A stretch of 31,424 nt of DNA from a virus (Duplodnaviria > Caudoviricetes): positions 1-31,424 of the IMG/VR virus record IMGVR_UViG_3300037851_000161; one strand, 5' to 3'. Position numbers and translations under genes: made by a program. The first letter of the stretch is position 1, and each line of letters starts with the position of its first letter. Shown one piece after another: positions 3,007-29,181 of this stretch. Under the pieces are notes generated by a model that saw nothing but the letters and a program-made list of their open reading frames with translations, did not search any database and had not been told where the DNA came from.

Positions 3007-3735
3007 CTATGTCTGGCCACCGGGCATTTCGTCCCAGGTGCGCCCGTCCAACACGCGGCCAGTGCGACTCTTCACCGCCCCGCCCCACTGCTTGAAGAAA
3101 AATGGCACGTTGGCCCGCGCGCACTGGTCGCGGATGTCGCGTACCCAGCCGCCAATAGGGATCCGACGTGCGCCTGGACCCGACTCGCCGCCGACGATCA
3201 CCCAGTTGATGCCGCGCAGCGGAATCTCGCCGAGATCCTCAAGCAGCGGCTCGATTGACAGAAATCGCATAGATACAGGCGTCGCCTGGAGATCTGCTAT
3301 ACGCGGTAGCCCGTGCTTTCTGTCCTCCACAGACACACCCCACCAAATATGATTTCCCTGCACATCATGATCCTGCATTCGGCGCGTGTGCCAGTATCGC
3401 ATTCTTTCCGACCGCTTCGTTAGCACTTGGTACGTGTGCCAATTAGCCAGTAACATCGTATCCATGATTTGTTCGATGTAAGCATCTGGAACAGATTCAT
3501 GGAACAGATCGCTCATGGAATCCACGAAAACCATTCGTGGCTTTTTCCACCGCATCGGCAAGTCCAGCGTGTGGGGCTGAAGCGTCACCTGGAAGCCGTT
3601 CGCGTAGTTCGGCTGGCCCATGGCCTGGAGCCGTAGCGCCATGCGTTCGGCGTAGCAGTGCTTGCAACCGGGACTGATCTTTGTGCATCCCGTGACCGGG
3701 TTCCATGTCTCGTCAGTCCACTCGATCTTACTCAT
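3007..3735 (-). CDS. Phage Gp37/Gp68 family (DUF5131) three-Cys, radical-SAM-like protein
   Basis: SKIEWTDETWNPVTGCTKISPGCKHCYAE, VFVDSMSDLFH, LTKR, FLSIEPLL, WVIVGGESGPGAR, FFFKQWGG. Confidence 0.93.
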   Translation of the reverse strand: MSKIEWTDETWNPVTGCTKISPGCKHCYAERMALRLQAMGQPNYANGFQVTLQPHTLDLPMRWKKPRMVFVDSMSDLFHESVPDAYIEQIMDTMLLANWHTYQVLTKRSERMRYWHTRRMQDHDVQGNHIWWGVSVEDRKHGLPRIADLQATPVSMRFLSIEPLLEDLGEIPLRGINWVIVGGESGPGARRIPIGGWVRDIRDQCARANVPFFFKQWGGAVKSRTGRVLDGRTWDEMPGGQT

Positions 3736-3787
3736 ATTTTCACCCACTTATCAGCCATGTGTGCTCCGTCAAATTTTTCCAAAGTGA

Positions 3788-9674: not shown

Positions 9675-9892
9675 AGCGGCGCTACATCGACCCATGCCAG
9701 GAGCTACGCTGCTGGATCAATGATGATGGTACAGTGTGCCATTCGTCGCACTGGGTAGCTGAACCCGACAAAAACGACGAGTGGGCCATCAAGCAGATGG
9801 CGGAGTGCAAGGGGAGACTCATGCAGCGCGTCAACCTGATTACAGAATGGCTTGATGCCGCCCGTATGGGTAAGTGGGAGGAGAGGCGATGA
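9671..9892 (+). CDS. Hypothetical protein
   Basis: GGAG RBS; ATGA overlaps on both sides. Confidence 0.7.
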   Translation: MKRRYIDPCQELRCWINDDGTVCHSSHWVAEPDKNDEWAIKQMAECKGRLMQRVNLITEWLDAARMGKWEERR

Positions 9893-10428
9893 TTACGTGC
9901 AGCCTATTCGTGGCGTGGCTGATCGTTGATCGCTCGCGCCTGCCGCTTTACCCGATGTGGACGCTGTATCTCTGCACCCAGGTTATCTCGCAGTATGTCA
10001 GATACGAACTCGGCGAGATGATCCCAGTGTTATTGATGGCGGTCTGCATCATGCGTATCGCCGCTGCCGCTGAGTTAGCCCGTCTTAGTTCCTGGATGTG
10101 GCTAGCGATGGGCTCTGGCAGCGCCGCCATGGTGCTGCTGGTCTACACAAATGATGCCGTGGCCGGCCAGCAGGAGGTGCTTGCATGGATCGCGGCGGTA
10201 ATCGCTGTGATGGCGTGGGGCTATCGCCGCGACCATCATTCATTGATCCTCGCGTTACACTGCCTGTCCTGGTCTCTTATCTATTCGACGTACCGATTCT
10301 ACGAGCAGGCATCAACGTGGTGGAACGTGCGGACCATCGGCGCTTGCATCCTCGCCGCCACCATCGCTTTCGACATGTGGCGGAAGCGGAGATATGCTGT
10401 ACAGGCGCGGATTCTGCGCGGGCTTTAG
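9889..10428 (+). CDS. Polytopic membrane protein (about 6 TM)
   Basis: GGAGGAG RBS; repeated hydrophobic segments; basic C-terminus. Confidence 0.75.
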   Translation: MITCSLFVAWLIVDRSRLPLYPMWTLYLCTQVISQYVRYELGEMIPVLLMAVCIMRIAAAAELARLSSWMWLAMGSGSAAMVLLVYTNDAVAGQQEVLAWIAAVIAVMAWGYRRDHHSLILALHCLSWSLIYSTYRFYEQASTWWNVRTIGACILAATIAFDMWRKRRYAVQARILRGL

Positions 10429-10587
10429 AAGCGCCTCCAGGGCCAGTATCTCATCGCGTTGCGAAAGCGACTCTACCAGTCGTAGCAGCGTCTCGCGTAT
10501 AAGACGGTCTTCTTCCTCGTCGTGGAGCGACAAAGCGCGCCGGTAGGCGTATACCGCCAGCGCCGCGAGCAGGAGCACCAGGACCAT
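10312..10587 (-). CDS. Hypothetical protein with N-terminal membrane anchor
   Basis: MVLVLLLAALAVYAYRR then an amphipathic helix; 3' end overlaps the convergent membrane gene. Confidence 0.45.
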   Translation of the reverse strand: MVLVLLLAALAVYAYRRALSLHDEEEDRLIRETLLRLVESLSQRDEILALEALLKPAQNPRLYSISPLPPHVESDGGGEDASADGPHVPPR

Positions 10588-10687: not shown

Positions 10688-10957
10688 TCATCGTGTCCAG
10701 TAAACCACCATCACTATATCGCGGCTAAGCGCTGGCCGGGATAGTGTCAGTCGCCTTCCAGCGACGGAGTAATCACGTGCGAGGCGACTAAGCAGAAGTC
10801 CGTTATGACTGACTAATATTAGTCCATCCGGCATTCTATCGAGAGTGAATTCGCTCGTTGCTGATTCGCAGATCCACTCCTGCGTTAGTTGCTCTGGCGC
10901 TTCAGCGCTGAGTGTTGCGCGATGCTGGAATAGCAGGGCCCTGCGAGTGATGTTCAC
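10688..10957 (-). CDS. Small beta-sandwich virion-type protein
   Basis: FTL..P...V..NG...DYSV.G..LTL..P...D.V.V.Y pattern typical of phage tail attachment domains; GTGA overlap. Confidence 0.6.
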   Translation of the reverse strand: MNITRRALLFQHRATLSAEAPEQLTQEWICESATSEFTLDRMPDGLILVSHNGLLLSRLARDYSVAGRRLTLSRPALSRDIVMVVYWTR

Positions 10958-11253
10958 TTACTGCTACACACCCAGTCTTTCTCGATTCCTAGCGCACATC
11001 CATCAGCGTTGAATTCTTTTCGCAGCGCCTCGAAGAATGTTTTCCACTCGGTCACTGCCTTTTCCACCGCTTTCTCAGCGTCGAGTAACTCAGACATCTT
11101 CACAGTGTCTCTCTGCCGTAGGAGCATCAGTTGATGCTGCGCTACCAGTAGGCGTAATTGGACGCGCGATATAGCCTCGTGGCGTTCCGGTGGGATTGCT
11201 TTCGGCGCTGGCGTGATCGTTTGTGCCAATAACAATGCGAATGTCAGGAGCAT
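10954..11253 (-). CDS. Signal-peptide coiled-coil protein (possible fibre chaperone)
   Basis: MLLTFALLLA|QT, long amphipathic helices, C-terminal Cys pair; directly after a fibre-like gene. Confidence 0.6.
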   Translation of the reverse strand: MLLTFALLLAQTITPAPKAIPPERHEAISRVQLRLLVAQHQLMLLRQRDTVKMSELLDAEKAVEKAVTEWKTFFEALRKEFNADGCALGIEKDWVCSSK

Positions 11254-12035
11254 CCTACAGTCACCGCGCCGCTCGATGAAACAGTAACACTCGTCACGTG
11301 CTCGCCAGGATCGCATGATGCCGATCCTCCGGTGTGGTACGAGGTAATGTGATCCGACAAACTCGTGATACAAGTAGGACACGAGATCGTATACTGATTG
11401 GACCCAAGGTCTTCGATGTAGATCGGCCCGCCGGAAAAGATTGATGCTACGTTTGATGTGCACGTGACTGTCGGCGTCGCTGTCCCTGATGCGATGGACA
11501 CTGTAACTACAGCATTATTCCCGCCGCTACAAGATGAACTGCCACCTGCCGGAGGAGATGCCACCGCGCCGCACGATGCCGACAGCGATCCTGCACTCGT
11601 CAGCGCCACTGATAATACTCGCTCGCCGAGTGGGCATACAGTAGATCCTCCAGGCATCACAAAATCTCCTGACGAATTGATGCGCAGAATCCCATTCGCC
11701 GTAAGTCCGATAAGTCGGTGTAACTCCCACTTCACGCCGCTATCCATGCTCGTGATGCCGTATCGGTTGACGGTCCCATACGAGCCTCCAGTTCCGATGT
11801 TGATCGCGGCGTTGGATGGTAGCGTGATGCCAAGGTCGGACAGCATTATCGTCGCACCTGGAGTGATCGACGATGCGCCTTGCACCGCGACGCAGGAGCC
11901 TCCAGCGCTCACGGGCTCGCATACGTTCAGCGTGCCGCTCAGTGTCGGAGCATTGAAGGGCGACACAAGATCAATGCGACTCGTCGTCTGACACACGGCA
12001 CTTATCGCACATACAAACAGAAGTAGTATTCTCAT
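11244..12035 (-). CDS. Signal-peptide, Cys-paired fibre-like protein
   Basis: MRILLLFVCAISAVC|QTT; three C..G..V..V....G....C hairpin repeats; 10 Cys in the mature part; Gly/Ser/Thr-rich. Confidence 0.7.
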   Translation of the reverse strand: MRILLLFVCAISAVCQTTSRIDLVSPFNAPTLSGTLNVCEPVSAGGSCVAVQGASSITPGATIMLSDLGITLPSNAAINIGTGGSYGTVNRYGITSMDSGVKWELHRLIGLTANGILRINSSGDFVMPGGSTVCPLGERVLSVALTSAGSLSASCGAVASPPAGGSSSCSGGNNAVVTVSIASGTATPTVTCTSNVASIFSGGPIYIEDLGSNQYTISCPTCITSLSDHITSYHTGGSASCDPGEHVTSVTVSSSGAVTVGCS

Positions 12036-12361
12036 AGCTCCTTCTTTCTGCGAAGTATTACTTCCTCCGCGCTTTCATCTGCCTCATAGACGCACATTCT
12101 GGAACGAGATAGTTTGTCGATTGCGGCCAGCATCTTTCCGCGATTCTCGTTACTCTCCTTGATTAGCTCGAACAACTCGCGTGAGAGTGCCGCGAGTTGC
12201 CGTTCCGAGTGCCGCCGATCCTGACGGTAGAATGTCAGGCACAGGACCGCCATTGCGACTCCCGCGCCCCAGTTAAGCCATTCGGTCTCTCCGACCTGTA
12301 GAAGAAACGACCACACCGTGACAGGTGCTGCTATGTATGGGATCAGAGATGGGTATGTCAT
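12032..12361 (-). CDS. Holin-like protein (BhlA/UviB-like architecture)
   Basis: TM helix WGAGVAMAVLCLTFY, then RQDRR and a coiled coil; start uncertain. Confidence 0.55.
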   Translation of the reverse strand: MTYPSLIPYIAAPVTVWSFLLQVGETEWLNWGAGVAMAVLCLTFYRQDRRHSERQLAALSRELFELIKESNENRGKMLAAIDKLSRSRMCVYEADESAEEVILRRKKEL

Positions 12362-12530
12362 TGCGAAAGATGATGGCAATCTCGTCTCCGATCCTGCCGA
12401 CTGAAACATAGTGTGAGCACGCCGAGACAACGGGCGTACCAAATTGATCCAACCTACAAAAAGAGACATAGCCACATACAGGGCAGATAGCTCCAGGGGA
12501 AGCGATTACCCATGAGACGTCATGATGCAA
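12273..12530 (-). CDS. Hypothetical Cys/His protein
   Basis: CPVC...CSH; starts 1 nt after the holin stop; overlaps the next gene. Confidence 0.4.
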   Translation of the reverse strand: MHHDVSWVIASPGAICPVCGYVSFCRLDQFGTPVVSACSHYVSVGRIGDEIAIIFRNDIPISDPIHSSTCHGVVVSSTGRRDRMA

Positions 12531-12531
12531 G

Positions 12532-12729
12532 TCAGTATCTCGGGGGAGTATCGTTACTATCCGCGGAGAACCACCCGAGCAGAAGAATCCCTACGACCAT
12601 AATCACAAAAGATGCCTTCACCCACCATGGCGTTGATGGGTCCAGCAACTCTCTGATATTCATCACGGCCATCGATAGTACCGTCAGTATGCCTGCGCGC
12701 GTTGTCCTGTAGTGTCCTTTCGGCCTCAT
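12532..12729 (-). CDS. Putative two-TM holin
   Basis: RTTRAGILTVL first TM; second TM ending GWFSADS, a pattern common in small phage holins. Confidence 0.6.
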   Translation of the reverse strand: MRPKGHYRTTRAGILTVLSMAVMNIRELLDPSTPWWVKASFVIMVVGILLLGWFSADSNDTPPRY

Positions 12730-12944
12730 TTCCGCCTCCGTTTTCTTGCGATAGTCGCCGGTGCTTTGCGTTTCTTCGACTCGCGCAATTGCGTAATTGC
12801 GAGTGTTAATTGCGGCCTGAGAGATTCGAGTATCAGTTGAGCCGCGCGATCGGCTGGCAGTGATCCATCATCCGCCATCACGGCAGAATAGATAGTCATC
12901 CCAATACCGATATACTCGGCCCAACTAAGGTTGATCGTATTCAT
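12726..12944 (-). CDS. Hypothetical protein with basic tail
   Basis: ATGA overlaps on both sides. Confidence 0.6.
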   Translation of the reverse strand: MNTINLSWAEYIGIGMTIYSAVMADDGSLPADRAAQLILESLRPQLTLAITQLRESKKRKAPATIARKRRRK

Positions 12945-14770
12945 CGCATCTCTGCCTTTCCGCTCAGTGTTGATCGCCCACTAAGCATAGTTGTCTGTCC
13001 GTTTGCGTTTACGTCGAAGCTGGCCAGCGACACGACGTATGGATTGAAGGAACTTAGTAAAGTGAATATTCTGATTGTTCCATCGCCATTATCGAATGCT
13101 GACTCTGGCGGTAACTGGTATGGTCCATAGGCATTGCCCGGCAATCCAAACGGAGAACCAGAAGTGAACTGATCGTATGGCGGCGCTGAGTCAGGATCGT
13201 ACACCGGCGGAAACAGCGTGAAGTTCGCGTTGTCGTTCGCGGGCGAATGAACAAGGATCGCGTGCCAGCTTTGCGCTCCAGTCGATTGATTGTGATTGAC
13301 CAGAATGCGAACCTCGCGGCTCCACTTCCACGGCTGCGGTCCATCGCTCGTGCGAGCCCAGATACCGCCGCATTCCGCAGCGCCGTATGTTGCCACCCAT
13401 CTGTTGATCGATCCGTACCACCGCACGCTATGTTCGCCGATGCAGGGCAATCCGCTCGATGTCCCTACGTGATCCCAGTTCTGTAGCAGCGGAACCGCTG
13501 AATCCTCATCCTGCAAAGTCCATGTTGGAGTCGTGGCCGTGAGATAGTAAGCGTTGCTAAGTCCGTTTGAGTATGTCGCTGCATCAATCGCAGACGTGCT
13601 CGCCAGCATCGCCATCAGATACAGATTGCTTTTGCGGTATGCCCACGTCGAGCCGAAGCAGAACAACACATCCTGTCCTTGCAGCGGCGCGGGGAGACCA
13701 TCCGAGATTGCGGACGGCATATCATCAGCGGCCATATATTCGCACGAGCCCATGATGAATTTCCCGATGTTGATGTCCTGCCTCGGCATGACAACAAACT
13801 GAAGTCCGCTACACGACGAGCACGTTACTGCTTGGTTCAGCGTGATCGTATTTCCAGCGACGTCTACGACCATATATCGGACTCCGCTCACATGCCAGTT
13901 ACCCTCGATGATGACTCCCTCGTATATCTCATCGTCTGCCCATGTCGTAGATGCAACAGATCCAGATGTGCGAGTGACAACAGCAGATCCGTTTGTCGCA
14001 TCAACAGTAGCAACTGGAATCGTCGGAGCCTCGGAAATCGTAGCCCCTCGCGTCCACGTCGGAGCATTCGTGCTTGTGATCGAAGATGTATCTATGTCCG
14101 ATTTGAGTAACACCGTGCGTCCCTTCAGCGACAGCCGAGGCATATTCAATCTCGTTTGCGCTAGCGTTTGCGCGTACAGTGTCGTTCCTATCGAAAAGCC
14201 ACCAACTGGCGGGACACCGGCGCCGTAAAAATCACCGGCCTGCGCGCCTGTTATCGACTGCATAGCGGCTTTCGGTATCTCGCCAGTATGTGCAGGATCA
14301 GTGATTACAGTCATGGCCGGGCAGCTGGAATATTGTGTATCTGCGCCCTGAATTGTCGCCTTCAAATTCTCGAACGAGTGGCAATCGTTCTGCGTCGTTG
14401 ACGGCAGCAACGCCATCACGTGCGTTCCGAGACACAGAGTATCCGATTGGCCAGGGCCGAAATTACAGTTAGTGCGCTCGTGCACAGACATCGTTTTACT
14501 TGCGCCGGAATCATAGTATGTCGTCACCGAATCTCCGAAGAAAATGAAGATGCGCCCGTCCGCAAGCCTGATGCTCGGTCCTTCATCCGATCCATGCACC
14601 CCGGCTAAAGTCATGGTTTGCGATGGGCTCGCCTGCGATCCGTAGACATCGAGGATATCCATTTGCTCCAGGTCGCCGATTACCTGTTGCCGGTACACCA
14701 TCGAGTTTTGGATCGGCTGCGCGGATACAGCGCAGATCGAAATAGCAATAGCGACGATAAGGTACCGCAT
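12941..14770 (-). CDS. Secreted DUF4185-like (five-bladed propeller, GH183-like) hydrolase with inserted phage beta-barrel segment
   Basis: Signal MRYLIVAIAISICAVSA|QP; GSDEG..., IFIFFGDS, GEHSVRW, PW.WS, YGPY, LLSSFNPYVVSL motifs; insertion TVDATNGSAVVTRTSG. Confidence 0.6.
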   Translation of the reverse strand: MRYLIVAIAISICAVSAQPIQNSMVYRQQVIGDLEQMDILDVYGSQASPSQTMTLAGVHGSDEGPSIRLADGRIFIFFGDSVTTYYDSGASKTMSVHERTNCNFGPGQSDTLCLGTHVMALLPSTTQNDCHSFENLKATIQGADTQYSSCPAMTVITDPAHTGEIPKAAMQSITGAQAGDFYGAGVPPVGGFSIGTTLYAQTLAQTRLNMPRLSLKGRTVLLKSDIDTSSITSTNAPTWTRGATISEAPTIPVATVDATNGSAVVTRTSGSVASTTWADDEIYEGVIIEGNWHVSGVRYMVVDVAGNTITLNQAVTCSSCSGLQFVVMPRQDINIGKFIMGSCEYMAADDMPSAISDGLPAPLQGQDVLFCFGSTWAYRKSNLYLMAMLASTSAIDAATYSNGLSNAYYLTATTPTWTLQDEDSAVPLLQNWDHVGTSSGLPCIGEHSVRWYGSINRWVATYGAAECGGIWARTSDGPQPWKWSREVRILVNHNQSTGAQSWHAILVHSPANDNANFTLFPPVYDPDSAPPYDQFTSGSPFGLPGNAYGPYQLPPESAFDNGDGTIRIFTLLSSFNPYVVSLASFDVNANGQTTMLSGRSTLSGKAEMR

Positions 14771-14771
14771 C

Positions 14772-16361
14772 TTAGTTGTGCTGGAAAGCCCTCATGTGCG
14801 TCTGCGTAATCATCGTGTTTGAATCAACAGTGCCAGCCCAAGTCACGACAACATTTAGCGTGATAGCGGCAGTAGTATCAACCGACACTGAGTAACTTCC
14901 TAGCGCGTTGTCGAGACTAACAGCCGCCAGTCCCGGCATGAACAACATGCCTGCGACATTGACCGGAGCGCTGGCTCCAGCGGCAGCCGTTCCCTCGATT
15001 ATGAACCGTCCGTACCCGCCACGGTCCGAGAGGTTCGCGGTCATGACTTGGTTTGCGGCCATGCAATATAGAGACGTGCTGCCAGCCCGCAAACACAACT
15101 GCATCCCGCCTACTGAGGATGCAGGCGTCACGATGTTGTAGCCCACTGTTACCTCGATGACAACACCGGTAACTAAGTGCCCTGCCGGTATCGTACACGT
15201 ATTCCCAAACTGCACACTCGTCGCGGCCGAGTTTACCTCTTCCGCCGATGCGCCGCCGGTGCATGTCAGCGTATGCGGAACAACAAATGATGCATCCGGG
15301 AAATGGATCGTTCTGTTGGTGCTGGAGTATGTCTGGAATGTCGTCGTCGTTGCTGTTGCTTGCGTCGTAGGAGTGAATGCTATTTTCTTGGTCTCGTCAG
15401 TGCTGTCCGTGTGGTATACGGTAAGTAGCAGGTTCTTACTTCCGATGGTTTGTTGCTGGCCTGCTGTTACGTAATATCGGCACGCCGTACCATCAGAAAC
15501 GCACATGAACTTCGTGGTTGAGTTGTAACTGATGTTACCTGCGCTCGTGCTAGGGCCACTGGCGACAGTAGGCAGGATGATTGTTGCAGCGGCAAAGTTG
15601 TTCGCCGCTGTCCACGTGTTAGACGCGCCTAGATATGCATCGCCGCCGCCGCCGCCGCCAGAAGTCCATGTACACGTGCTTACGCCGCCGGATGGAGCAG
15701 AGCACGATATCACCTGATCGTCGAGCGGGTCTGTATCTGGATAGACCAGGGTTAGTGATGTCGATCTTGAATCAGGCGCTTTGATCGAGAAGAAATCGTT
15801 CCCGTTGGCTGCCAGCTCGACGAGCGAGATACTTCCAGCTACGGTCCCATCGCCGGATGATACGCCACCTGGGAACGCGCCGAGACCGGAATCATTCACC
15901 GTAGCGATGCTGTTTTGCAGGATTCTCCCGCTCGTCAGATTCCATCTCGCGACCGCGTTATCTGTCGAGCTTGCCGGGCCGCTCAGGCCAAGGCTCGGAG
16001 TAGCGACAACTCCGGTCTCAATCGCCGATACCGTCGTCGTTGTCGGTGATGCTGGAACAACCCAGTATCTCGTATATGCGCTGCCTCGATCTGGTGTATA
16101 TCTCACGCTGTAAGACGAGCCCTCCGGGTAACATCCCTCGTTGGCAATCATCGTCAGGTTGAGAACTCCACTCGCAATCGTGTAGCTTTTCATCACTGCT
16201 GGATAAGTGCGCACACCGCACGTCATTGCTTGTGATTGTATGTCGAGACGGCCATTGAAAAGGTCTCCATCAAACGCATTGCGCAGTGTGTCCGTCACCG
16301 TGATCGTAGTTTGCGCAATCGCCGATAGAGACAATAGGAGTGTGGCGAAGAGTATCTTCAC
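14772..16361 (-). CDS. Tail-fibre-like protein with N-terminal signal peptide
   Basis: GTG start (GTGA overlap, GGAGG RBS); KILFATLLLSLSAIA|QT; fibre motifs GVLNLTMIANEGCYPEGSSYSVRY, GPASSTDNAVARW, ELAANGNDFFSIKAP, DSTDETKKIAF. Confidence 0.8.
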   Translation of the reverse strand: MKILFATLLLSLSAIAQTTITVTDTLRNAFDGDLFNGRLDIQSQAMTCGVRTYPAVMKSYTIASGVLNLTMIANEGCYPEGSSYSVRYTPDRGSAYTRYWVVPASPTTTTVSAIETGVVATPSLGLSGPASSTDNAVARWNLTSGRILQNSIATVNDSGLGAFPGGVSSGDGTVAGSISLVELAANGNDFFSIKAPDSRSTSLTLVYPDTDPLDDQVISCSAPSGGVSTCTWTSGGGGGGDAYLGASNTWTAANNFAAATIILPTVASGPSTSAGNISYNSTTKFMCVSDGTACRYYVTAGQQQTIGSKNLLLTVYHTDSTDETKKIAFTPTTQATATTTTFQTYSSTNRTIHFPDASFVVPHTLTCTGGASAEEVNSAATSVQFGNTCTIPAGHLVTGVVIEVTVGYNIVTPASSVGGMQLCLRAGSTSLYCMAANQVMTANLSDRGGYGRFIIEGTAAAGASAPVNVAGMLFMPGLAAVSLDNALGSYSVSVDTTAAITLNVVVTWAGTVDSNTMITQTHMRAFQHN

Positions 16362-17680
16362 GCGAGAATCCCTCCAGCAAAACCGATGTTGCACGATGCC
16401 TCAATGTCGCTGCCGCCAGCGATAGATAATGCTCCATCAACTAAGTCATCCGGGTAGCAATTGTTCCCAACCATGCGGCAGTTGTTGATACCTTCCAGCA
16501 GAATCCCGTACGAGGCGCTCGATGCGAACGCAACATCCGTGCAGTTGTTTCCATCGATGAGTAACCGATGAGAGTACGACGCAACAAGGTTCGAGTATCG
16601 AGGCGATGAATACAGCCGTGAATTGATGTGGCACAAATTCCCAGAGATCGTGTGCCCCTGCCCGGAATACAGATAGATTCCATGCTGGCCGTTGAATCGC
16701 ACGGAACATCCGATGATGCGGCACCCAACAGAACCAGATAGCAAAATCCCATGGCCGTTGTTAGTCAGTACTTCGCACCCAGTTAGCTTAGTGAATGAGC
16801 CGTACGGCTTGTAGTAGCCACCAGATCCGTTGAAGTTGATGTGACAGTTTGTCCAGGTCTCATCGCCGGGAGGCTGTATTGATGTGCCTCCAGCAGCTTC
16901 AACAACTCCCCACAGATTGTGCGCGAGTATCCAACAGTCCGTGAAATTCACCTCGTCCGCCATGCCTGAAAATCCGTTTTCTAGGTTGGACCAGTTCTCC
17001 AGCCGCACCCCATCATCTGTGCCGTTCACGATGCGGCAGGACACAAAGTGCGAGTAAGCAGAATTGCGCACTAACAATGTCGCGGTCCCGCCTGAAGATG
17101 ATTGATACTGCCTGCTCCCGTTCAGCGCAACGCCGAATATTCTGCTGTGATAGCACTCCTGCATCCACAGCAGCGGATTCGTGTTTCCTCCTGGCTTGAG
17201 GATAAGATTACCGCCCTCGAACGTAAGCCCGTTCCAGTCTGTTACTCGGTGCCCCATGCTCCATATCGAAGCGCCTTGCCGCTCGCAGTACAGCGGCCCT
17301 GTCAGAAAGCAATAGTCGCTCGGGAGATATACGACTGGCAACGTGTCTATTGCTTCTTGTAGCGCCGCGGTATCGTCCGTGCCATATAGCATCCTCGATC
17401 CGATTGCCGTTGTTCCAGCAGCCACGGACGATCGGAACGAGTCCGTTGACAGAACTTCGTCGATGGTCCCGACGAGCGGAGCCGTTCCTTCACCGGCACC
17501 AACTACGCCGAATACCTTTCCAACATCGTTGCCGGTGAGTTCATTGCTGACATCTGTCACAACGTCACTTAGTATTTCGGTCGATGCGTCGCAATACCGT
17601 GCGTCTCCGACGGCACCGAACGACAGGGGAGTCGCTATCGTTCCGTTGATGTCGCTTTGCAGGATCGGGATAGAAGGCAA
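16358..17680 (-). CDS. Right-handed beta-helix tail spike (pectate lyase-like depolymerase)
   Basis: FGAVGD, GTDDTAALQEAIDT, repeated N..HGI.L / I.GN.C rungs; TTG start with GGAGG; no signal peptide. Confidence 0.85.
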   Translation of the reverse strand: MPSIPILQSDINGTIATPLSFGAVGDARYCDASTEILSDVVTDVSNELTGNDVGKVFGVVGAGEGTAPLVGTIDEVLSTDSFRSSVAAGTTAIGSRMLYGTDDTAALQEAIDTLPVVYLPSDYCFLTGPLYCERQGASIWSMGHRVTDWNGLTFEGGNLILKPGGNTNPLLWMQECYHSRIFGVALNGSRQYQSSSGGTATLLVRNSAYSHFVSCRIVNGTDDGVRLENWSNLENGFSGMADEVNFTDCWILAHNLWGVVEAAGGTSIQPPGDETWTNCHINFNGSGGYYKPYGSFTKLTGCEVLTNNGHGILLSGSVGCRIIGCSVRFNGQHGIYLYSGQGHTISGNLCHINSRLYSSPRYSNLVASYSHRLLIDGNNCTDVAFASSASYGILLEGINNCRMVGNNCYPDDLVDGALSIAGGSDIEASCNIGFAGGILA

Positions 17681-19045
17681 TTAGTACGGTTCGCCTCCGT
17701 CGTGAGTGATCGTACCATCACTTCCTCCAGAGCCACCGCTTTGCGTCGATGATGTGATGATAGTGCCACCTCTCAGTTCCTTGAAAAAGCGAATCGCATC
17801 CTGCAACATCGGACCCGATGCCGCGGTGATATCGACCTGGATTCCGATGTTCGATAGATTCGCGAATCTCAACCCGGTAATCAGATAATGTCCAACCGCA
17901 TCGGCGGCAGCGACATCAAACCACAGTCGCTCGCCTAGCGAAAGAGACAAGCACGATGGCTCTAAGAACGTGTTGGTCGTCGCTGTTATTTCTTCGCTCA
18001 ATGCCGCGCGATCCGACAGTATCGCATTGGCCAAAGCCTCAGATTCTCCCTGTGTCGATGGAGTCTGGGATTCCGTGATGTATTCGTATCGCCCAGATGT
18101 ACCCTCTAATAGTTGGCGTGCTGCTATCTCGTCGTCGTCCTGGACTGTGATGACACGCGAGTCTTGTCCGATGTAGACGACTTCGAGAGTATCTCCACCC
18201 GTCAACACTGTCTGTCCAGAATCTTGCGTGAGAGTATTCGAGCCGACCTGCCAGTACCACTGTGCCGTACCGCCGATTATGTCAACGGTCTGAATGACGG
18301 AGTTGACCGTAACTGTCGGAGTAGAAGCGATACCGTACGTCAGTTCAAATGTCCTCGTACTGCCGTTGCCATTCATTGATTCTGTTTGCTCGTCGGTGAT
18401 GTAGTTGCCGACGCGAACATGAACAACGTTGGCGTACTCCTCACGCGACTCTCGAACCGACAGCTCGGATATGTTACTCGAATTTATCACGACAGAAGAT
18501 GTGTAACCTGCTTTGTCGTGCCATCGAAGTTCCTTGTCAAACGTTACTCGCCACACGTAGCCAGTTATCGCTTTGAGGCTGTCGAGTGCTTGTGAAACAG
18601 TCGCGTAATCGACGCTGAATGACTCTACGTTCGTCCCTGTCGCGACATACGTAAGTCCGATGTCTTCGTCCGTGAGATACGTGTTCGCGATGTCTTGGAC
18701 GATGGTTCCACTGGGCAGATTAGTCCACGTCCGTTGATCTGTCATCCGCCTGTCGAGCGCATGAGTGTAGTCCGTGACGGCTGATGCAGTCGTCAGAGCG
18801 TAGACTCCATCGGCACCATACGCAACAGTTCTCGTAACGCTGTTCACCGTGCCAGTAAACAGCGTTACTCCCATCGCGGAAAAGTCTATCGGCTGTCCTA
18901 TTGCCGGGCCGAAGACATCATCAGACTTGCACTTGAAGGTGAAATCAGCAGACCATCGCGCGCCGAAAGAGCCGTTGATGCTGAACTCTTCGAGATACTG
19001 TTTTTTCTCGAATCCACCGACGAGACAGCTATGCGTGAATGGCAT
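17681..19045 (-). CDS. Tail tip / baseplate hub protein
   Basis: Immediately after the tape measure; LFTGTV, G.IV.DI, ALDSL...GYVWRV, YANVVHV patterns. Confidence 0.75.
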   Translation of the reverse strand: MPFTHSCLVGGFEKKQYLEEFSINGSFGARWSADFTFKCKSDDVFGPAIGQPIDFSAMGVTLFTGTVNSVTRTVAYGADGVYALTTASAVTDYTHALDRRMTDQRTWTNLPSGTIVQDIANTYLTDEDIGLTYVATGTNVESFSVDYATVSQALDSLKAITGYVWRVTFDKELRWHDKAGYTSSVVINSSNISELSVRESREEYANVVHVRVGNYITDEQTESMNGNGSTRTFELTYGIASTPTVTVNSVIQTVDIIGGTAQWYWQVGSNTLTQDSGQTVLTGGDTLEVVYIGQDSRVITVQDDDEIAARQLLEGTSGRYEYITESQTPSTQGESEALANAILSDRAALSEEITATTNTFLEPSCLSLSLGERLWFDVAAADAVGHYLITGLRFANLSNIGIQVDITAASGPMLQDAIRFFKELRGGTIITSSTQSGGSGGSDGTITHDGGEPY

Positions 19046-19048
19046 CAG

Positions 19049-21088
19049 TTACAATCTCTGTTTGATCGCTCTTACGATCTCATCAGCCATGGCCTGAGGG
19101 TTGTTTGTGTTGGTGTTTATGGTGATATTCCACGTCGATCCGGCGCCGCCAATTGAGCCACCAACACCGGCGACGGCCAGCTGGTTCCCGTCTGTAAACA
19201 CTTTGATCCCGACCGTACGGAATTCAATCAGCCTCGCGTGTATTCCCTCCAGGGACGGTAGGTAGCGATTGAGCGCCGGCTGAATTCCGTCTGTTAACTG
19301 GCTGAGAATTCCTCGCGATGTAACTTCGAGCCGCGCGATATCCTTGCCCTGGCTCGCCGATTGAAACAGTCCGATCACGCCGGTGACAGCAGAACTGATC
19401 GACGCGAAGGAACTAACGACGCTACTAATCCCCTTTGTCGCCGCGCTTAGGAATCCGCCAGCAGAACTGGCCGCACTATTGACCGAGCTACCAAACACGC
19501 TACTAAGTCCTGGAATGTTTCCGAGTAGTCCGCCAAGAGCTTTCCCGATGTCTGCAAACACGCCTTGCACGAGACTTCGCGTAAGGCTCTTGGCGATGTC
19601 GATGCCAACTTGCTTCATCACTTCGCCGAATTTTTTGCCAGAGAAAATGGCGTCTGCGATGCCGCGGGAAAGATCAGTGATGATCGTCGATACTTCGATC
19701 AACGGTTTCTGCGCGTCCTGGAAAGAATCCTTGAGTTCCTTGACGCTCTTTTTCTCAGCGCCGAACATCACATCCTGCGCGGCGTGTCGCTTCCACGCGT
19801 CGCTCATATCCACGAATGCTACTTTTGCAAAAACCAGTTCTCGGTTCAGTAACTCAGTAGCAAACGCAATCCCTTCGATATTGTCAGTTACCTCAAGCAG
19901 TGGGCCTGTCGGTGGAAGAAAATCAGGAAACTTAGTTATGCCGGTCAGGTGCTGAATCCATCGAGACCGCTCGATTGCAGCGCTTGCTTCCGCGAATTCG
20001 CGGGCATTTTTTCGTAGCGCGTCGTCCAATTTTTCGATGGCCTTTGCGGCCTTGCTCGCCTCCTCTTCCGCGGCCTTGATTTCAGCTTTCGTTTTTCCCG
20101 TGATGATTGTCAGCCCCTCTCCGGTGAGGACGTTTTTCCCGAGAGACTTTTCGACAACGGATGCTGGAATATCAATTACATCAATACCGAGTTGCTTTCG
20201 CTGGAACTTATCAAACTCCTCAAACTCACGCTTTACATTTTCCCACGTCGAGCCACTTACAGCGTTAAGCAACCCGGCGAGAGCATTTGTGACAAGCTTA
20301 ATTGCAGGCTCTATCTTCTTACCTAACGTGTTAGCGAAGTTGTCCCAGGCATCGCCGAGATTGCTCAATTCGTTTTGCATCGTGCCCGCTGCTTTTGGGA
20401 GTTTCTCTGTTGCGGTAATGATGCCGTCGATGAATTCCTGAGCGCCAAGGCCAGACTTTTGTAACTGCTCAGTGTCGGCTGTGCCAAACGCATCTTTCAT
20501 TAGCTGTCGGATCTGCGGTAACCGCTCGGCTAATTGATTGATTTCCTCCGCCGATACCTTGCCCTTTCCAACGATCTGTTGCAGCGCTTTGATTACGCCA
20601 TCGAGATCCTCCTTGCCGCGGCCAACTAAGGCCAGCGCATTCCCGAATCCCTCGATGGCGCGACGCGCTGTCTCCGCTTGTAGTCCCGCGCCCTGTAGCG
20701 CTATGCTCCCCTGTATCGCCTCCTTCATGCCGAGGCCTGGAAGCTCGGCTGTCTTCTTTAGTTTCTCCAATTCCTGTCGCGCTAACTCGCTTGATCCCAT
20801 CATTGCCGCAAGGCCCTTTTCCAGGGATTCAAATTGGAGGCGCGTTTCGAAAATGTTTTTCCCTATCGCTGCGATTCCTGCGCCAATTCCGACGACGCCG
20901 AAAGCTTGCGATAACTTGCCGATGCTTCCCGCTAGCGAGCTAATCGTGCCGTCAGTTCCGCTGATAGACTTGGGCAGCTTACTTATCTCGGAGGAAAATC
21001 CGCTTACCGCTTTCTCGCTCTGCTGTGTCGCGGTGCGGAAGCTCGTCGAGTCCCCGAGTATGCGGACGAGTAACTCCCTAATTGCCAT
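19049..21088 (-). CDS. Tail tape measure protein
   Basis: IRELLVRILGDSTSF; tape-measure N-terminal domain ALQQIVGKGKVSAEEINQLAERLP; Ala/Gly-rich helical body. Confidence 0.95.
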   Translation of the reverse strand: MAIRELLVRILGDSTSFRTATQQSEKAVSGFSSEISKLPKSISGTDGTISSLAGSIGKLSQAFGVVGIGAGIAAIGKNIFETRLQFESLEKGLAAMMGSSELARQELEKLKKTAELPGLGMKEAIQGSIALQGAGLQAETARRAIEGFGNALALVGRGKEDLDGVIKALQQIVGKGKVSAEEINQLAERLPQIRQLMKDAFGTADTEQLQKSGLGAQEFIDGIITATEKLPKAAGTMQNELSNLGDAWDNFANTLGKKIEPAIKLVTNALAGLLNAVSGSTWENVKREFEEFDKFQRKQLGIDVIDIPASVVEKSLGKNVLTGEGLTIITGKTKAEIKAAEEEASKAAKAIEKLDDALRKNAREFAEASAAIERSRWIQHLTGITKFPDFLPPTGPLLEVTDNIEGIAFATELLNRELVFAKVAFVDMSDAWKRHAAQDVMFGAEKKSVKELKDSFQDAQKPLIEVSTIITDLSRGIADAIFSGKKFGEVMKQVGIDIAKSLTRSLVQGVFADIGKALGGLLGNIPGLSSVFGSSVNSAASSAGGFLSAATKGISSVVSSFASISSAVTGVIGLFQSASQGKDIARLEVTSRGILSQLTDGIQPALNRYLPSLEGIHARLIEFRTVGIKVFTDGNQLAVAGVGGSIGGAGSTWNITINTNTNNPQAMADEIVRAIKQRL

Positions 21089-21766
21089 GCTTCAGCCTCA
21101 TTAGTCCTTCCGACATAGCGCGTGCGCTCATTTCCATCGCTTTTTGGCTGGAGTCTTTCTGTGGTACAGAAGGCATAAACGTCTCGATCGGTAACTTACC
21201 GCCGAGCGCCGAGGAGATGATAAAAGGCGTCCACGCTGTACGCAATTCCTCCATCTGAAACTCCTCAGATAGTATCTCCTGCATTGCTGCCAGACGCCGA
21301 GGAGTTAGGCTGATGAACTCTTCCTCGCTTACCCGGTAGTGGTATCGGCACCAACTGTATAGCCTGTCCCAGTCGAGTTCCCGAAAATCGGGCTTGCCCC
21401 GAAGATCGCCTTCGCGCCCGGCATCACTGTCTCGAAAAAATCCTTCACCGCTGCATCGACAACGTTGCCGAGTTTCGCGCGATCCTCAAAGGAAATCGGC
21501 ATCGCATCCTCGATCCATTCAATCGTCACGTCTGGTTTCGCGTGTTGCAGTCCGACAAACAGTATCAGCGTGATCTGCCACAGTGACGACGACTCCAGGA
21601 ATACGCGCGTAGTCAGTGGGAACAACGCTCCGTATCCATCCGCTTTTTCCTGCTCTGTAAGTTGCGCCTTCCACTTACGCTCGGCTCTAAGAAAATCGCC
21701 GATCTGAAATCGGAGGGCGAGCAATTGCCCTCCGATCTCGACCATGCGCGGCTCAGGAGCTAACAT
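21078..21766 (-). CDS. Tail assembly chaperone GT (-1 frameshift fusion)
   Basis: -1 frame open from the slippery site: FRDSD...LDWDRLYSWCRYHYRVSEEEFISLTPRRLAAMQEIL..., typical gpT EF..LTP motif. Confidence 0.8.
21329..21766 (-). CDS. Tail assembly chaperone G
   Basis: Between tail tube and tape measure; GGAGG RBS before ATG 21766; EIGGQ..LRF and GLQH..P motifs. Confidence 0.85.
   Translation of the reverse strand: MLAPEPRMVEIGGQLLALRFQIGDFLRAERKWKAQLTEQEKADGYGALFPLTTRVFLESSSLWQITLILFVGLQHAKPDVTIEWIEDAMPISFEDRAKLGNVVDAAVKDFFETVMPGAKAIFGASPIFGNSTGTGYTVGADTTTG
21434..21440 (-). other. Programmed -1 frameshift slippery heptamer T TTT TTC
   Basis: In-frame GAT TTT TTC gives X XXY YYZ, and the -1 frame stays open to 21078. 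Confidence 0.8.
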
Positions 21767-21790
21767 GTGAACCTCCCGGTTACTCGACAT

Positions 21791-22198
21791 TTAGACCGAC
21801 CAGTCGCCAGACATCAGAAGCTCAACGTTGGTCCGGCCTGCGTTGTTGCCCTGTATCGTCGGCGTGAACTGTGATACGGTTGCGGCAAACGTAAGCACGT
21901 TGTTTGTCCCGGCGAACGGCAACAGCGCCTTGTAATTCAGCGCGGTCGTGTTGTTTTTGCGCGTCAGGAGAAACTGATGTGATTCGCTCGTGGGGTCCCA
22001 GAACAGCGGCATACTCACAGTGATATCGCCTGGAGATCCGGGAAACGTTGTCGCGGATGACGCCTCAAGCGGCTTGATCGATACTTGATCCGCCGCGCCG
22101 CCCTGTATGTCAAACGACTCGACGCCGTTGATGTTGATGAACGTTCCGTTGGTGTGCTGCACCTGAACGATGGTGCCTTGCGTTGACCAATAGGCCAT
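21791..22198 (-). CDS. Major tail (tube) protein
   Basis: STQGT.V, I.GVESFD..GG.AD, PG.PGD, LTFAATVSQF, L.MSGD pattern; position. Confidence 0.88.
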   Translation of the reverse strand: MAYWSTQGTIVQVQHTNGTFININGVESFDIQGGAADQVSIKPLEASSATTFPGSPGDITVSMPLFWDPTSESHQFLLTRKNNTTALNYKALLPFAGTNNVLTFAATVSQFTPTIQGNNAGRTNVELLMSGDWSV

Positions 22199-22225
22199 GA
22201 CTGTTAGCTCCTAAGTGAAGTGGCC

Positions 22226-22639
22226 TCACGGCCTGTACTGCAATTCTATCTCGGTCACAACGATATACACATTCGCATCCCGATTCAATCCGCCATCAGA
22301 CCGCGATGACTGTATGCACTTAGTCACGGTGACATCGCCCATTGCGCCTGAGTAACCGTGACAGCGGGATCGAACGTGCTCGGATAGCAGATGCGCCTCT
22401 TCATGGATCGCGCTATGCGATTCTATGATCCATGTCGAATTCCACAGATGCCCTCCACGCTCAGCAATCAGATGCGGCATTGCGTCTGATTCGCTCGTCA
22501 GAGCATAGATGATCGCCGGGTCCGCCTGCTCTTCCACGGACTCTAGTCCATGCTCGACTGGGTACACGCGATCCGAGACCATTCCGGCGATAGTAGCATC
22601 GTCGAGAAGGAACGTGCGAAAACCTTCTACCAGCGTCAT
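22226..22639 (-). CDS. Tail terminator / tail completion protein (DUF3168-like)
   Basis: L..D.TI.GMVSDRVYP, PAIIY, A..L...VR...GYSG. Confidence 0.85.
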   Translation of the reverse strand: MTLVEGFRTFLLDDATIAGMVSDRVYPVEHGLESVEEQADPAIIYALTSESDAMPHLIAERGGHLWNSTWIIESHSAIHEEAHLLSEHVRSRCHGYSGAMGDVTVTKCIQSSRSDGGLNRDANVYIVVTEIELQYRP

Positions 22640-22893
22640 GCGCCACGACCCCACAAGTACGAGATAGCTTCCGAGTAAGCGGTAGAAAGTATGTCGCTCG
22701 CTCCCAATTCCGCCGCTCGGATTCCAGGCTCGAATGCTGGCTTTGCCGGTAATCTGCGACGAGTGCCACTTTCAAAAATTCTCGCGAGCGACATACCGAG
22801 CTTCGTTCCCTTCCCGCGCACTGCTGGCATAGCGAGATTGGAAGCAGCCTTTCTCCGCTTGATTCTCCTGCGCCTGATTACCGATCTCGCCAT
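22636..22893 (-). CDS. HK97 gp10-like neck protein, C-terminal part
   Basis: IFESGTRRRLPAKPAFEPG matches the gp10 E.GT..PA.PF.RPA motif; in frame with 22894-23286. Confidence 0.65.
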   Translation of the reverse strand: MARSVIRRRRIKRRKAASNLAMPAVRGKGTKLGMSLARIFESGTRRRLPAKPAFEPGIRAAELGASDILSTAYSEAISYLWGRGA

Positions 22894-23286
22894 CTACTTT
22901 TTCTGTCTCCGCTTATACGCCCGCAACCGCTTCACATCGGATCTTACGCTGCTGCCAGAAAACCACTCGCGGTACAATTCCTTGTCGCTTCGCGGTCCTG
23001 TCTTTATTCCGACGATGCTACTAATCTGTTGTATCTTTCCTCCTGGCTTTTGCGCGGCATAAAAAAACAAAGCTCGCTTCTTTAGCACGCTGGCCCAATC
23101 CCGCGAGTTCATCAACGTCCTGATGATTCCGGCAGTGAACTGCGATGCGCGAGTGATGCCGCGCTGTACGAGTGCCCTGCCGATCGCGGCATCAGATGAT
23201 CCGCCAGATTTCGCTACGCCATCGTGCAGGGCCTTGAATGCTCGGTGTAATTCCTTCACACCAGTTACCTGCACCGATGCGCTCAT
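22894..23286 (-). CDS. HK97 gp10-like neck protein, N-terminal part (ends at in-frame TAG)
   Basis: VQVTGVKELHRAFKAL typical gp10 N-terminus; position between head closure and tail terminator. Confidence 0.7.
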   Translation of the reverse strand: MSASVQVTGVKELHRAFKALHDGVAKSGGSSDAAIGRALVQRGITRASQFTAGIIRTLMNSRDWASVLKKRALFFYAAQKPGGKIQQISSIVGIKTGPRSDKELYREWFSGSSVRSDVKRLRAYKRRQKK

Positions 23287-23636
23287 TGTTGCTTGACCTC
23301 TTCTACGGTAAGTAGCTCCATCTCCCTGTTTCGCTCGCCGACATTCACCACGCCCTCAATGCGCCAGATCCTCGACCCGGAACGTAACCGCATGTTAGGC
23401 CTGATATCGGGTCTCCAGTGCGTGCGCCAGACACATGTGACAACGGGGACCAAGCGGTCCCCGCTATCACGCTCTGCGGGTTTCTGCTGCACCGCGCTTG
23501 ACATAACCGTGAACTGATACGTCCACGTCGAAGGGTCAATTTGGCCCGTTGGGCTTGCAGTCCCGATCAAAGCATCAACATCGAGTGGCGTCGAGTAACT
23601 ACCAATTCCAAATGATCCTGGCCCGCTTGTCTTCAT
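23283..23636 (-). CDS. Head closure / head-tail adaptor (SPP1 gp16-like)
   Basis: WRPDIRPNMRL..GSRIWRIEGVVNVGERNREMELL. Confidence 0.9.
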   Translation of the reverse strand: MKTSGPGSFGIGSYSTPLDVDALIGTASPTGQIDPSTWTYQFTVMSSAVQQKPAERDSGDRLVPVVTCVWRTHWRPDIRPNMRLRSGSRIWRIEGVVNVGERNREMELLTVEEVKQQ

Positions 23637-23639
23637 TCG

Positions 23640-24389
23640 TTATTCCGTAGGTGGAGGTACTTGCTTTAGCACATCGATTAGCTTTCCACTGAAGCGATAC
23701 GGCCCTTCGTGCGATAGATCAGCCGTCGCGTGCGCCCAGATGCGACCGCCAATGTGTTGCCACATGCGGCAGAACCCGAAATCCTCGGATAGAAACCTGC
23801 GATCCTCCGAGCCTACATCGATGATCGCGGAAAACAAATCGTATGACCAGCGTCTTTGCGACTCCGGCTGATGCGGCCCGAACGTGCATTTCCGTTCCGG
23901 GTAAGCATTCATCATGCGCAATAAGCACTGACGCGTAGCGCACATGAACCCAGTCGGTGCGTCCGCGAGTTCCATGAATCCACTTAGTGGGTGCTGGTAG
24001 ACCAAGCCAGCATTGTTGATGAAATTCGCTGGCCAGTCAATCGGCAAACATTTTTTCGGGTAGACTACGCACGCGAGATCGTGTCCGCCGAGTAACATGC
24101 CGCCCACTAAATCTGTTACTACTTGCGGCTCCCATCCAAGATCGGAATCGATGAATAGAAAATGCGTCATCGCATCGTCTTCCATCGCCTTAGCGACGAG
24201 TACGTTTCTCGCGCGCTGCACCAGCGAATCTCCGACCTCGGGAATATACCTCCATGGGATACCAACTCGACTAAGATGCTGCGTCGTTTCCATCAGAGAT
24301 CCCTGGTACAGCGCCTTCGGCCCTTCGGTTGGCGTCGCGATTGTCAGTTTGACGCCCCGGAAATTTACCGTCTCGGTTCTTGTCTCCAT
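23640..24389 (-). CDS. GT-A fold glycosyltransferase-like protein
   Basis: IATP, DSLVQRARN, THFLFIDSD (DxD), TGFM, LSEDFGFC..W..IGG.IW, LSHEG. Confidence 0.85.
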   Translation of the reverse strand: METRTETVNFRGVKLTIATPTEGPKALYQGSLMETTQHLSRVGIPWRYIPEVGDSLVQRARNVLVAKAMEDDAMTHFLFIDSDLGWEPQVVTDLVGGMLLGGHDLACVVYPKKCLPIDWPANFINNAGLVYQHPLSGFMELADAPTGFMCATRQCLLRMMNAYPERKCTFGPHQPESQRRWSYDLFSAIIDVGSEDRRFLSEDFGFCRMWQHIGGRIWAHATADLSHEGPYRFSGKLIDVLKQVPPPTE

Positions 24390-24495
24390 GTTGACCCTCT
24401 CGGTCTTTGTGTCTGCACTCCGCGCTACACCAGCGCTCGTTGTACGGTATGTCGATTCCGCATCGCCGGCAATGTTTCGCCCATCGTGATTGCAC
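24271..24495 (-). CDS. DUF2116-like Zn-ribbon small protein
   Basis: HCRRCGIDIPYNERWCSAEC; 3' part overlaps the glycosyltransferase gene. Confidence 0.5.
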   Translation of the reverse strand: MQSRWAKHCRRCGIDIPYNERWCSAECRHKDREGQHGDKNRDGKFPGRQTDNRDANRRAEGAVPGISDGNDAAS

Positions 24496-24496
24496 G

Positions 24497-25072: not shown

Positions 25073-25090
25073 GATAGCACCTATTGTTCA

Positions 25091-25124
25091 GATGCGCGAC
25101 GACTCCCCCGAGCCGTCGCGCATC
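25091..25124. other. Strong hairpin after the capsid/decoration genes
   Basis: GATGCGCGACG...CGTCGCGCATC 11-bp stem; no U tract, so possibly an mRNA stabiliser or partial terminator. Confidence 0.6.
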
Positions 25125-25141
25125 CCTTGGATCAACTGCGA

Positions 25142-25609: not shown

Positions 25610-25641
25610 TGTTGATTGTCCTTTCTTACTTGGCTAACTAA

Positions 25642-26919: not shown

Positions 26920-26936
26920 TCGCGTTCTCCCTTGTT

Positions 26937-29180: not shown

Positions 29181-29181
29181 A

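Follow-up and report, generated by a model that had tools for sequence, protein, structure and literature searches.

The window analysed here is a complete virus record (IMG/VR IMGVR_UViG_3300037851_000161; 31,424 bases), and within its minus-strand siphophage late operon the gene at 14772-16361 codes for a side-fibre-type protein that opens with a predicted Sec signal peptide, followed by a domain whose predicted fold resembles the collar by which lambda Stf and four other fibres are held on virions. Judged from its sequence and those of its homologues, export of this fibre is very probable. Tailed phage particles are taken as built wholly in the cytoplasm; the explanation we favour, with confidence only slightly above even, is that a signal-bearing collar fibre would mature in the periplasm and be joined to the finished tail at lysis. 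The parts are of known kinds, and the combination and the implied assembly route appear to be new.

Late genes with signal-like leaders

An earlier note on this DNA proposed that four late genes (10954-11253, 11244-12035, 12941-14770, and 14772-16361) form a single tail-fibre module of exported, disulfide-bonded proteins. All four open reading frames (ORFs) lie on the minus strand at those positions and have signal-like N-termini, with Gln directly after the predicted cut in 4/4 genes (the site being placed by rule). The even numbers of Cys in the mature products were also confirmed, with 10, 10, and 10 in 14772-16361, 12941-14770, and 11244-12035, and two in 10954-11253; an 11th Cys of 12941-14770 and two further Cys of 11244-12035 sit in the leaders. 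Signals are assigned here by hydropathy rules and conservation, and over the first 28 residues the four genes reach a maximum 9-residue hydropathy of 2.53-3.52, with the leader of 10954-11253 (10 residues, no basic residue) the weakest. The absence of signals from the spike, hub, and head genes holds as well, with a best hydropathy of at most 1.72 across 20 late genes between 16358 and 31332.

The translation starts are unlikely to lie downstream of the hydrophobic segments, as they are coupled to upstream stops. The GTG start of 14772-16361 overlaps the stop codon of the spike gene and is closely preceded by GGAGG; 12941-14770 begins with an ATG one base past the preceding stop; and the ATG of 11244-12035 overlaps a stop and has AAGGAG upstream. 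The public gene call for 14772-16361 begins at residue 57 (P0001, 473 aa), and the upstream start is supported because the homologues align from residues 1-20. The products of the three companion genes are likely exported too, judging by their leaders, although a single fibre module as first proposed is not supported: 12941-14770 codes for a DUF4185 (GH183-like) protein with chromosomal relatives, 11244-12035 has no significant match, the chaperone role suggested for 10954-11253 has none behind it either, the window also encodes a leaderless spike, and three small genes at 12032-12944 interrupt the set. Tail-fibre motifs had been claimed for two of the four; they are statistically established only for 14772-16361, the one gene of the four known to be fibre-type.

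The fibre and its family

The features of the fibre gene are as follows:

14772-16361, minus strand: 529-aa side-fibre-type protein (family profile, structure model, shaft and tip matches)
16314-16361, minus strand: predicted Sec signal peptide of the fibre with Gln at the predicted +1 (sequence; signal-like leader in homologues)

The signal (residues 1-16) is followed by a collar-type beta-sandwich (17 to ~120), a shaft motif (~127-299), and a C-terminal domain (~368-520), and five Cys pairs are predicted. Residues 1-127 match 613 cluster representatives (E up to 0.001), and the family statistics derive from the best 149 of these with the query itself excluded. By the hydropathy rule 137/149 keep a signal-like leader, a figure that is inflated, and in which leaderless forms are under-counted, because the query contained the signal. 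Three of the other 12 fall just below the cut-off and nine have short leaders, six of which look cut or mis-started; P0089, P0116, and P0157 look truly leaderless and have one Cys each. A hydrophobic leader also opens 58 of the 62 domain-bearing ORFs in the loci that we fetched, part of which were located by a leader-blind motif. The leaders are conserved in position and not in sequence, and a small residue followed by Gln occupies the junction in 89 of the 137 leader-bearing homologues. Gln at +1, the mark of the Q-rule invoked in the earlier note, is thus common but not required, and the host is likely an acidobacterium rather than a member of the Bacteroidetes.

Mature Cys counts are even in 63 of the 81 members of at least 400 aa (p 5e-7; some may be truncated), compared with 21 of 45 leaderless controls. 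C48 and C77 co-occur, with both present in 23 homologues, one alone in 0 and 4, and neither in 122, although kin are not independent. Cys richness alone proves nothing because the leaderless spike holds 15 Cys; parity and covariation, unlike mere richness, do carry signal. Together with the conservation of the leader they lend good support to export and periplasmic disulfide folding as the earlier note had proposed, and because it has both an export signal and paired Cys the fibre likely folds outside the cytoplasm.

The shaft matches the leaderless protein P0002 (E 8e-13 in a small set), and its motif matches leaderless phage proteins, with L001-L008 sharing the shaft motif only; the tip matches other signal-bearing fibres. 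Behind the collar domain, family members carry phage tail repeats (PTR), collagen, or beta-helices (with any Pfam match in 17 of the 64 scanned), and they also match tail-fibre PHROGs. The fibre itself has no hmmscan match to Pfam phage_tail_N (PF08400), for which there is an Atlas lead at 0.85 only, and no Pfam match to the S74 chaperone domain; a PDB sequence search with the family profile gave no match, and word-based sequence searches found almost nothing. Even if its members stay on the cell surface, the family makes up a large group of secreted fibres carried by phages in a dominant soil phylum.

A predicted collar fold

We modelled the collar domain with AlphaFold2 from a 92-row alignment, giving a predicted local distance difference test (pLDDT) score of 91; a single-sequence model of the mature 513-aa fibre was unusable (pLDDT 33). 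Among 48,161 PDB chains, the five that match the collar model best each anchor a fibre to the virion (Z 8.3-11.0), with the following Z scores, root-mean-square deviations (rmsd), and aligned residues:

8keg_a: Z 11.0, rmsd 6.8, 106 aligned
9d93_La: Z 10.5, rmsd 3.5, 92 aligned
9e7m_Ta: Z 9.9, rmsd 2.9, 91 aligned
7kjk_A3: Z 9.5, rmsd 6.5, 105 aligned
9cod_A: Z 8.3, rmsd 2.8, 92 aligned

The next matches (Z 7.8 and below) are secreted or pilin-type sandwiches. Judged by length, 9e7m_Ta corresponds to Stf residues 1-94, and 8keg_a is gp82N. Stf residues 1-94 of Ur-lambda collar the junction of tube and distal tail (PMC12617516), and the A-1(L) neck fibre (gp82) self-assembles before hooking on (PMC10966104). 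Foldseek, a comparison that the earlier note had recommended, ranked the same PDB entries first, though at E 0.015-0.13 and TM ~0.55; against predicted viral structures 12 matches reach E 0.001, with the named ones being tail or fibre proteins, and the model matches many predicted tail-fibre N-termini. A complex prediction with two tail-tube chains and two collar domains scored 0.00 and counts neither way.

Gene context and probable host

A motif scan yielded 13 viral loci. Eight of these, which include near-copies and amount to about four independent cases, have the signal-bearing gene immediately after a distal-tail-like gene, and before the hub in every contig long enough to show it. At one locus the gene sits between those for tape measure and hub and is itself preceded by another gene; at three it follows the terminase, and in the two longer of these it heads a run of further signal-bearing genes; and at one no tail context is visible. 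Signal-bearing genes of fibre, enzyme-like, and small helical types also occur in runs in L064, L072, L079, and the cultured phages Tunturi 1 and 2. We also note that L062, L064, and L072 encode collar-domain proteins of ~2,000 aa directly after the terminase and before a probable portal, followed by four or five more signal-bearing genes.

The phage host is likely a soil acidobacterium, because 26 of the 27 genome matches are titled Acidobacteriota; several of these are prophage-like runs with a hub and two or three signal-bearing genes. L083, titled Bacillota, is nearly identical in the tree to the Acidobacteriota loci L080 and L093 and is probably mislabelled or mis-binned. Similarity searches with the capsid and RecT were rejected as host indicators, with matches coming from unrelated hosts and no host identified.

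A chromosomal fibre copy and a GTA-like cluster

In the family of genome G002, probably Bryobacteraceae, a standalone chromosomal gene, often with housekeeping genes next to it, codes for a protein with a signal, a collar domain, small repeats, and a pair of Cys, and the same family carries a head-tail cluster resembling a gene transfer agent (GTA):

L052:10611-11948, L058:10049-12205, L059:9917-11002, L060:9664-10755: gene for a secreted fibre-like protein on the chromosome, in many cases adjacent to what is probably a seryl-tRNA synthetase gene (by eye)
L108-L113, for example L113:829-17365: GTA-like head-tail cluster of ~16 kb in one Acidobacteriota family

A profile of seven such fibre genes, some of which come from within the 61-genome sample, finds the gene in 59/61 genomes of the family, usually at one locus; an earlier count with a weak query (212/301 genomes) is superseded by this one. 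The GTA-like cluster codes for terminase, portal, scaffold, capsid, tail, a short tape-measure-like protein, distal tail, and hub, in identical order in 6/6 regions read. Its capsid is present in 56/61 genomes at 69-90% identity to the G002 copy, and DUF2460 in 72/81 genomes of the same family, a tally that includes the unpublished G082. Fibre and capsid are both present in 55/61 genomes and both missing from one, and the collar-type signal-bearing fibre gene is not inside the cluster but elsewhere on the chromosome. No integrase or replication genes were seen beside the cluster on reading the ORFs of six 20-kb regions, whose flanks were not profile-scanned, and the capsid was not found in 100 other genomes of the phylum, six of which had domain-only matches.

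A G011 prophage (L054, L114; G011:C43) with replication-type genes has homologues of 11 cluster genes (capsid 75%) together with a signal-bearing fibre of its own, and the domesticated element may have a free relative in it. A quick, midpoint-rooted tree of 117 rows and 113 columns, covering about a third of the representatives, groups the chromosomal copies in a single branch of 31 rows (SH-aLRT 96), which includes rows titled Bryobacterales, among phage-type rows. These patterns suggest one domestication of particle and fibre together. We found no description of a GTA-like cluster in this host family in the literature searched, including the available part of PMC5900883. RcGTA likewise keeps its tail-fibre gene outside the head-tail cluster (PMC10883770), and the host copy resembles it in having a single conserved head-tail cluster with a fibre gene at another locus; however, capsid and lineage differ, and the Acidobacteriota fibre has a signal.

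A proposed route and comparison with known systems

We propose that the 14772-16361 product would be exported by Sec, cleaved, disulfide-bonded, and folded in the host periplasm, and that it would form a trimer able to attach at the junction of tube and tail tip. Because tailed phages assemble in the cytoplasm, a periplasmic part must join at or after lysis; the fibre would clamp onto the tail of a finished particle once periplasm and cytoplasm have mixed through holin damage, or following release. The predicted fold, the position of the gene, and the co-retention of the chromosomal copy with the GTA-like cluster tip the balance modestly towards attachment of the fibre to the virion.

The known collar fibres that we compared are those of lambda Stf/Ur-lambda (9E7M), A-1(L) gp82 (8KEG), Bxb1 (9D93), XM1 (7KJK), and DEV (9COD). 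Stf-type fibres assemble in the cytoplasm. The window fibre shares with them a predicted collar beta-sandwich, together with fibre shaft repeats and a position in the tail operon, but the known chains are leaderless from residue 1, whereas the window fibre has a predicted signal and paired Cys, and identity is 11-17%. M13 pIII is a virion adsorption protein with a Sec signal that is disulfide-bonded in the periplasm. It provides a parallel for a signal-bearing, adsorption-type protein with periplasmic disulfides (predicted for the window fibre), although inoviruses assemble at the membrane without lysis and tailed phages in the cytoplasm.

Among cultured phages, the podoviruses Tunturi 1 and 2 (PMC11924767) have six consecutive signal-like genes, gp12-gp17, in the fibre slot, four of them with Gln; the long fibre- and spike-like genes there are all signal-bearing, and the mature Cys counts are 20, 10, 20, 2, 1, and 32 or 34. 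The collar profile has no match in the fetched regions of Tunturi 1-4 (best E 0.13), and a match of Tunturi gp13 to fibre residues 191-237 was set aside as not significant (E 0.07-0.14); Tunturi is therefore an analogue in design and not a demonstrated homologue. The main text of PMC11924767 contains neither 'signal peptide' nor 'mass spectrom', and its supplements may bear on this. Phages of Porphyromonas gingivalis carry Q-rule signal-peptide genes of unknown function that have been read as host-surface modifiers (PMC10367356); they share Sec signals and Gln at +1 with the genes here but are not fibres, and their host belongs to the Bacteroidota. The main text of the Q-rule paper (PMC5837995) does not mention Acidobacteria. 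In the literature searched, which left most subscription journals uncovered, we found no work describing tailed phages whose tail fibres bear signals.

Alternative explanations

Several observations weigh against a periplasm-matured virion fibre. The family profile was built from a query that included the signal, the eight loci sharing the tail-tip position reduce to about four, and the Foldseek matches to PDB entries are weak. Secreted proteins contain pilin and carboxypeptidase-type domains to which the collar fold is related, and the domain could for that reason anchor to the cell surface instead. No separate distal tail gene was recognised in the window, and the leaderless spike could serve host recognition alone. 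Tunturi 3 and 4, infecting the same genus as Tunturi 1 and 2, have leaderless fibre genes, and export is thus not required by the host. Co-retention of fibre and GTA-like cluster is one evolutionary event and no proof that the fibre joins the particle. Finally, there is a known case of secreted phage-like fibres remaining on cells, the Bdellovibrio MATs, which have a signal, a conserved domain rich in beta structure and ~130 aa long, and variable tips, and are displayed on the surface (PMC10769870). The window fibre resembles them in its signal, similar-sized beta-rich N-terminal domain, and mosaic of phage-like fibre and tip, a likeness of layout; but the MATs are a set of 21 adhesins encoded in the chromosome of a predator, with S74 chaperones in many of them, whereas the window gene lies in a phage tail operon and has no S74 match.

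The proteins might accordingly be exported and never reach the particle, acting as MAT-like fibres on the surface of lysogens or infected cells, as adhesins, or as receptor decoys while the spike is the sole receptor-binding protein. This is the main alternative, which we regard as less likely though it deserves real weight: besides the layout and surface display of the MATs, a standalone chromosomal copy sits among housekeeping genes across a host family, the 12941-14770 protein has its relatives in chromosomes and none in viral contigs, and at three of the 13 viral loci the gene follows the terminase and not tail genes. Set against this, the best structural matches of the collar domain are virion anchors, the gene lies within the tail-tip block between distal tail and hub genes at 8/13 loci, leaderless versions of the domain exist, the host family that keeps the fibre also keeps the particle cluster, and the long fibre-slot genes of Tunturi 1 and 2 are all signal-bearing. 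A quite improbable variant is that each gene gives two products, an exported form for the cell surface and a leaderless one, made from an internal start or by cytoplasmic clipping, that serves as the virion fibre. The automatic caller did pick the internal ATG at residue 57, and PMC10367356 mentions capsid proteins of phages whose signal-like leaders are probably cut by proteases of the phage; however, starting at residue 57 removes ~40 residues (several predicted strands) of the collar domain, there is no Met at the predicted mature start, and the even Cys counts point to an oxidising compartment.

It is similarly improbable that the four genes are unrelated cargo (a fibre with morons and lysis helpers, 10954-11253 being spanin-like) gathered at the end of the late operon. 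In its favour, the set is broken by three small genes, neither an endolysin nor a spanin was recognised, 10954-11253 is helical with two Cys, and 12941-14770 looks host-derived; but 10954-11253 lacks a full transmembrane segment or lipobox, and L064, L072, L079, and Tunturi 1 and 2 also have runs of signal-bearing genes. Such a gathering would also leave the fibre's own leader unexplained, and for the fibre it is compatible with periplasmic maturation and joining at lysis. That the leaders are artefacts of wrong starts or chance hydrophobic stretches, to which the one downstream public gene call lends itself, is largely refuted and scarcely credible given coupled starts with ribosome-binding motifs and a leader position conserved among homologues of both the fibre and 12941-14770.

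If periplasmic maturation and addition at lysis is correct, it constitutes an extra step in tailed-phage assembly, explains the folding of disulfide-rich receptor-binding proteins, and keeps fibres off host receptors or partners early on. We tentatively speculate, at less than even confidence, that Acidobacteriota phages and the Bryobacterales GTA-like particle use a second assembly compartment, in which oxidised collar fibres stocked in the periplasm snap on at lysis; host, prophage, and phage fibres could then mix on one particle and shift host range without genome change. Periplasmic maturation with joining at lysis is directly testable, as Tunturi 1 and 2 are cultured and have the same design, and the host family has an apparently undescribed GTA-like cluster together with a secreted fibre.

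Companion genes

The following genes lie downstream of the fibre gene in the late operon:

12941-14770, minus strand: 609-aa DUF4185 (GH183-like) protein, likely secreted, with 10 Cys in its mature part and an additional short Gly-spaced tail at the C-terminus (Pfam)
12032-12944, minus strand: three small genes, two with hydrophobic segments (ORFs; no family matches)
11244-12035, minus strand: 263-aa Ser/Gly/Thr-rich protein with a predicted signal and 10 mature Cys (sequence)
10954-11253, minus strand: 99-aa protein predicted to be helical, opening with a short hydrophobic leader and carrying a C-terminal pair of Cys (sequence)
10688-10957, minus strand: 89-aa leaderless gene whose product resembles a single repeat of the secreted fibre of host type (weak match by profile, at E 8e-4 in a set of 15 window proteins)

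The DUF4185 assignment of 12941-14770 narrowly exceeds the Pfam cut-off (40.5 bits against 39.5) and covers residues 360-582 only; DUF4185 includes the GH183 endo-D-arabinanases, which have a five-bladed propeller fold with catalytic carboxylates (PMC10509167). There are six homologues at 29-54% identity, with all four full-length ones keeping leader and Gln, and relatives at two loci in Acidobacteriota chromosomes have no phage neighbours; a word-based search found none in viral contigs, and there was no PDB sequence match. D80, E422, E446, E466, and E486 are invariant among seven rows. The product is probably a host-derived glycan hydrolase, which would either ride on the fibre or act on the cell surface. 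Its Gly-spaced C-terminal tail (12941-13003) is absent from the six homologues; among 647 ORFs the tail pattern recurs in two signal-bearing phage proteins (L064, L072) and one chance ORF, and similar ends are visible by eye in L018 and L077. Our guess is that the tail could be a docking tag.

The 11244-12035 protein, with no Pfam or PHROG match, is possibly a second, putative fibre part; its candidacy as a collar-family member (E 6e-4) was rejected on a collar profile score of only 0.8. For 10954-11253 there was no significant match, word-based searching returned almost nothing, and the Atlas look-alikes are unnamed viral proteins below the 0.9 bar; L079 and L067 hold signal-bearing small genes that look similar by eye. 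A role as periplasmic folding helper is possible. Spanins have an N-terminal transmembrane segment or lipobox, and this protein, with a 9-residue hydrophobic stretch and no N-terminal Cys, does not qualify as one. The small genes at 12032-12944 may be holin-like, and 10688-10957 begins with a twin-arginine-like stretch without a hydrophobic core.

Other features of the window

Upstream of the fibre gene lie the spike and the remainder of the late operon, which runs from a protease through HK97-type capsid, adaptor, head closure, tail tube, tape measure, and probable hub to the beta-helix spike (Pfam and PHROG):

16358-17680, minus strand: tailspike-type beta-helix protein without a leader, containing 15 Cys (Pfam Beta_helix, PHROG tail spike)
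17681-26940, minus strand: leaderless siphophage core with probable hub, tape measure, tail tube, head closure, adaptor, and HK97-type capsid (Pfam, PHROG, N-terminal hydropathy)

The spike serves as an internal control and is possibly an ordinary receptor-binding protein; the probable hub has no family match in Pfam or PHROG, and word-based searching found almost nothing for it. Pfam and PHROG scans of the window proteins recognised no terminase, portal, endolysin, or spanin, and no terminal repeat was found, the window ends not overlapping; with terminase, portal, and endolysin unrecognised and no end overlap, the contig is probably incomplete.

Three leaderless genes upstream of the protease (27560-30276; 146, 396, and 364 aa) have no family matches and may code for head or neck appendages of an ordinary kind. 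A glycosyltransferase-2-like gene (23640-24389; PHROG 1574) lies between adaptor and head closure, and virion glycosylation is possible. The late operon ends at convergent membrane-type genes, 9874-10428 (plus strand) and 10312-10587 (minus strand), without a Pfam or PHROG match where scanned, and the early region contains a DUF5131 gene at 3007-3747 (E 8e-97).

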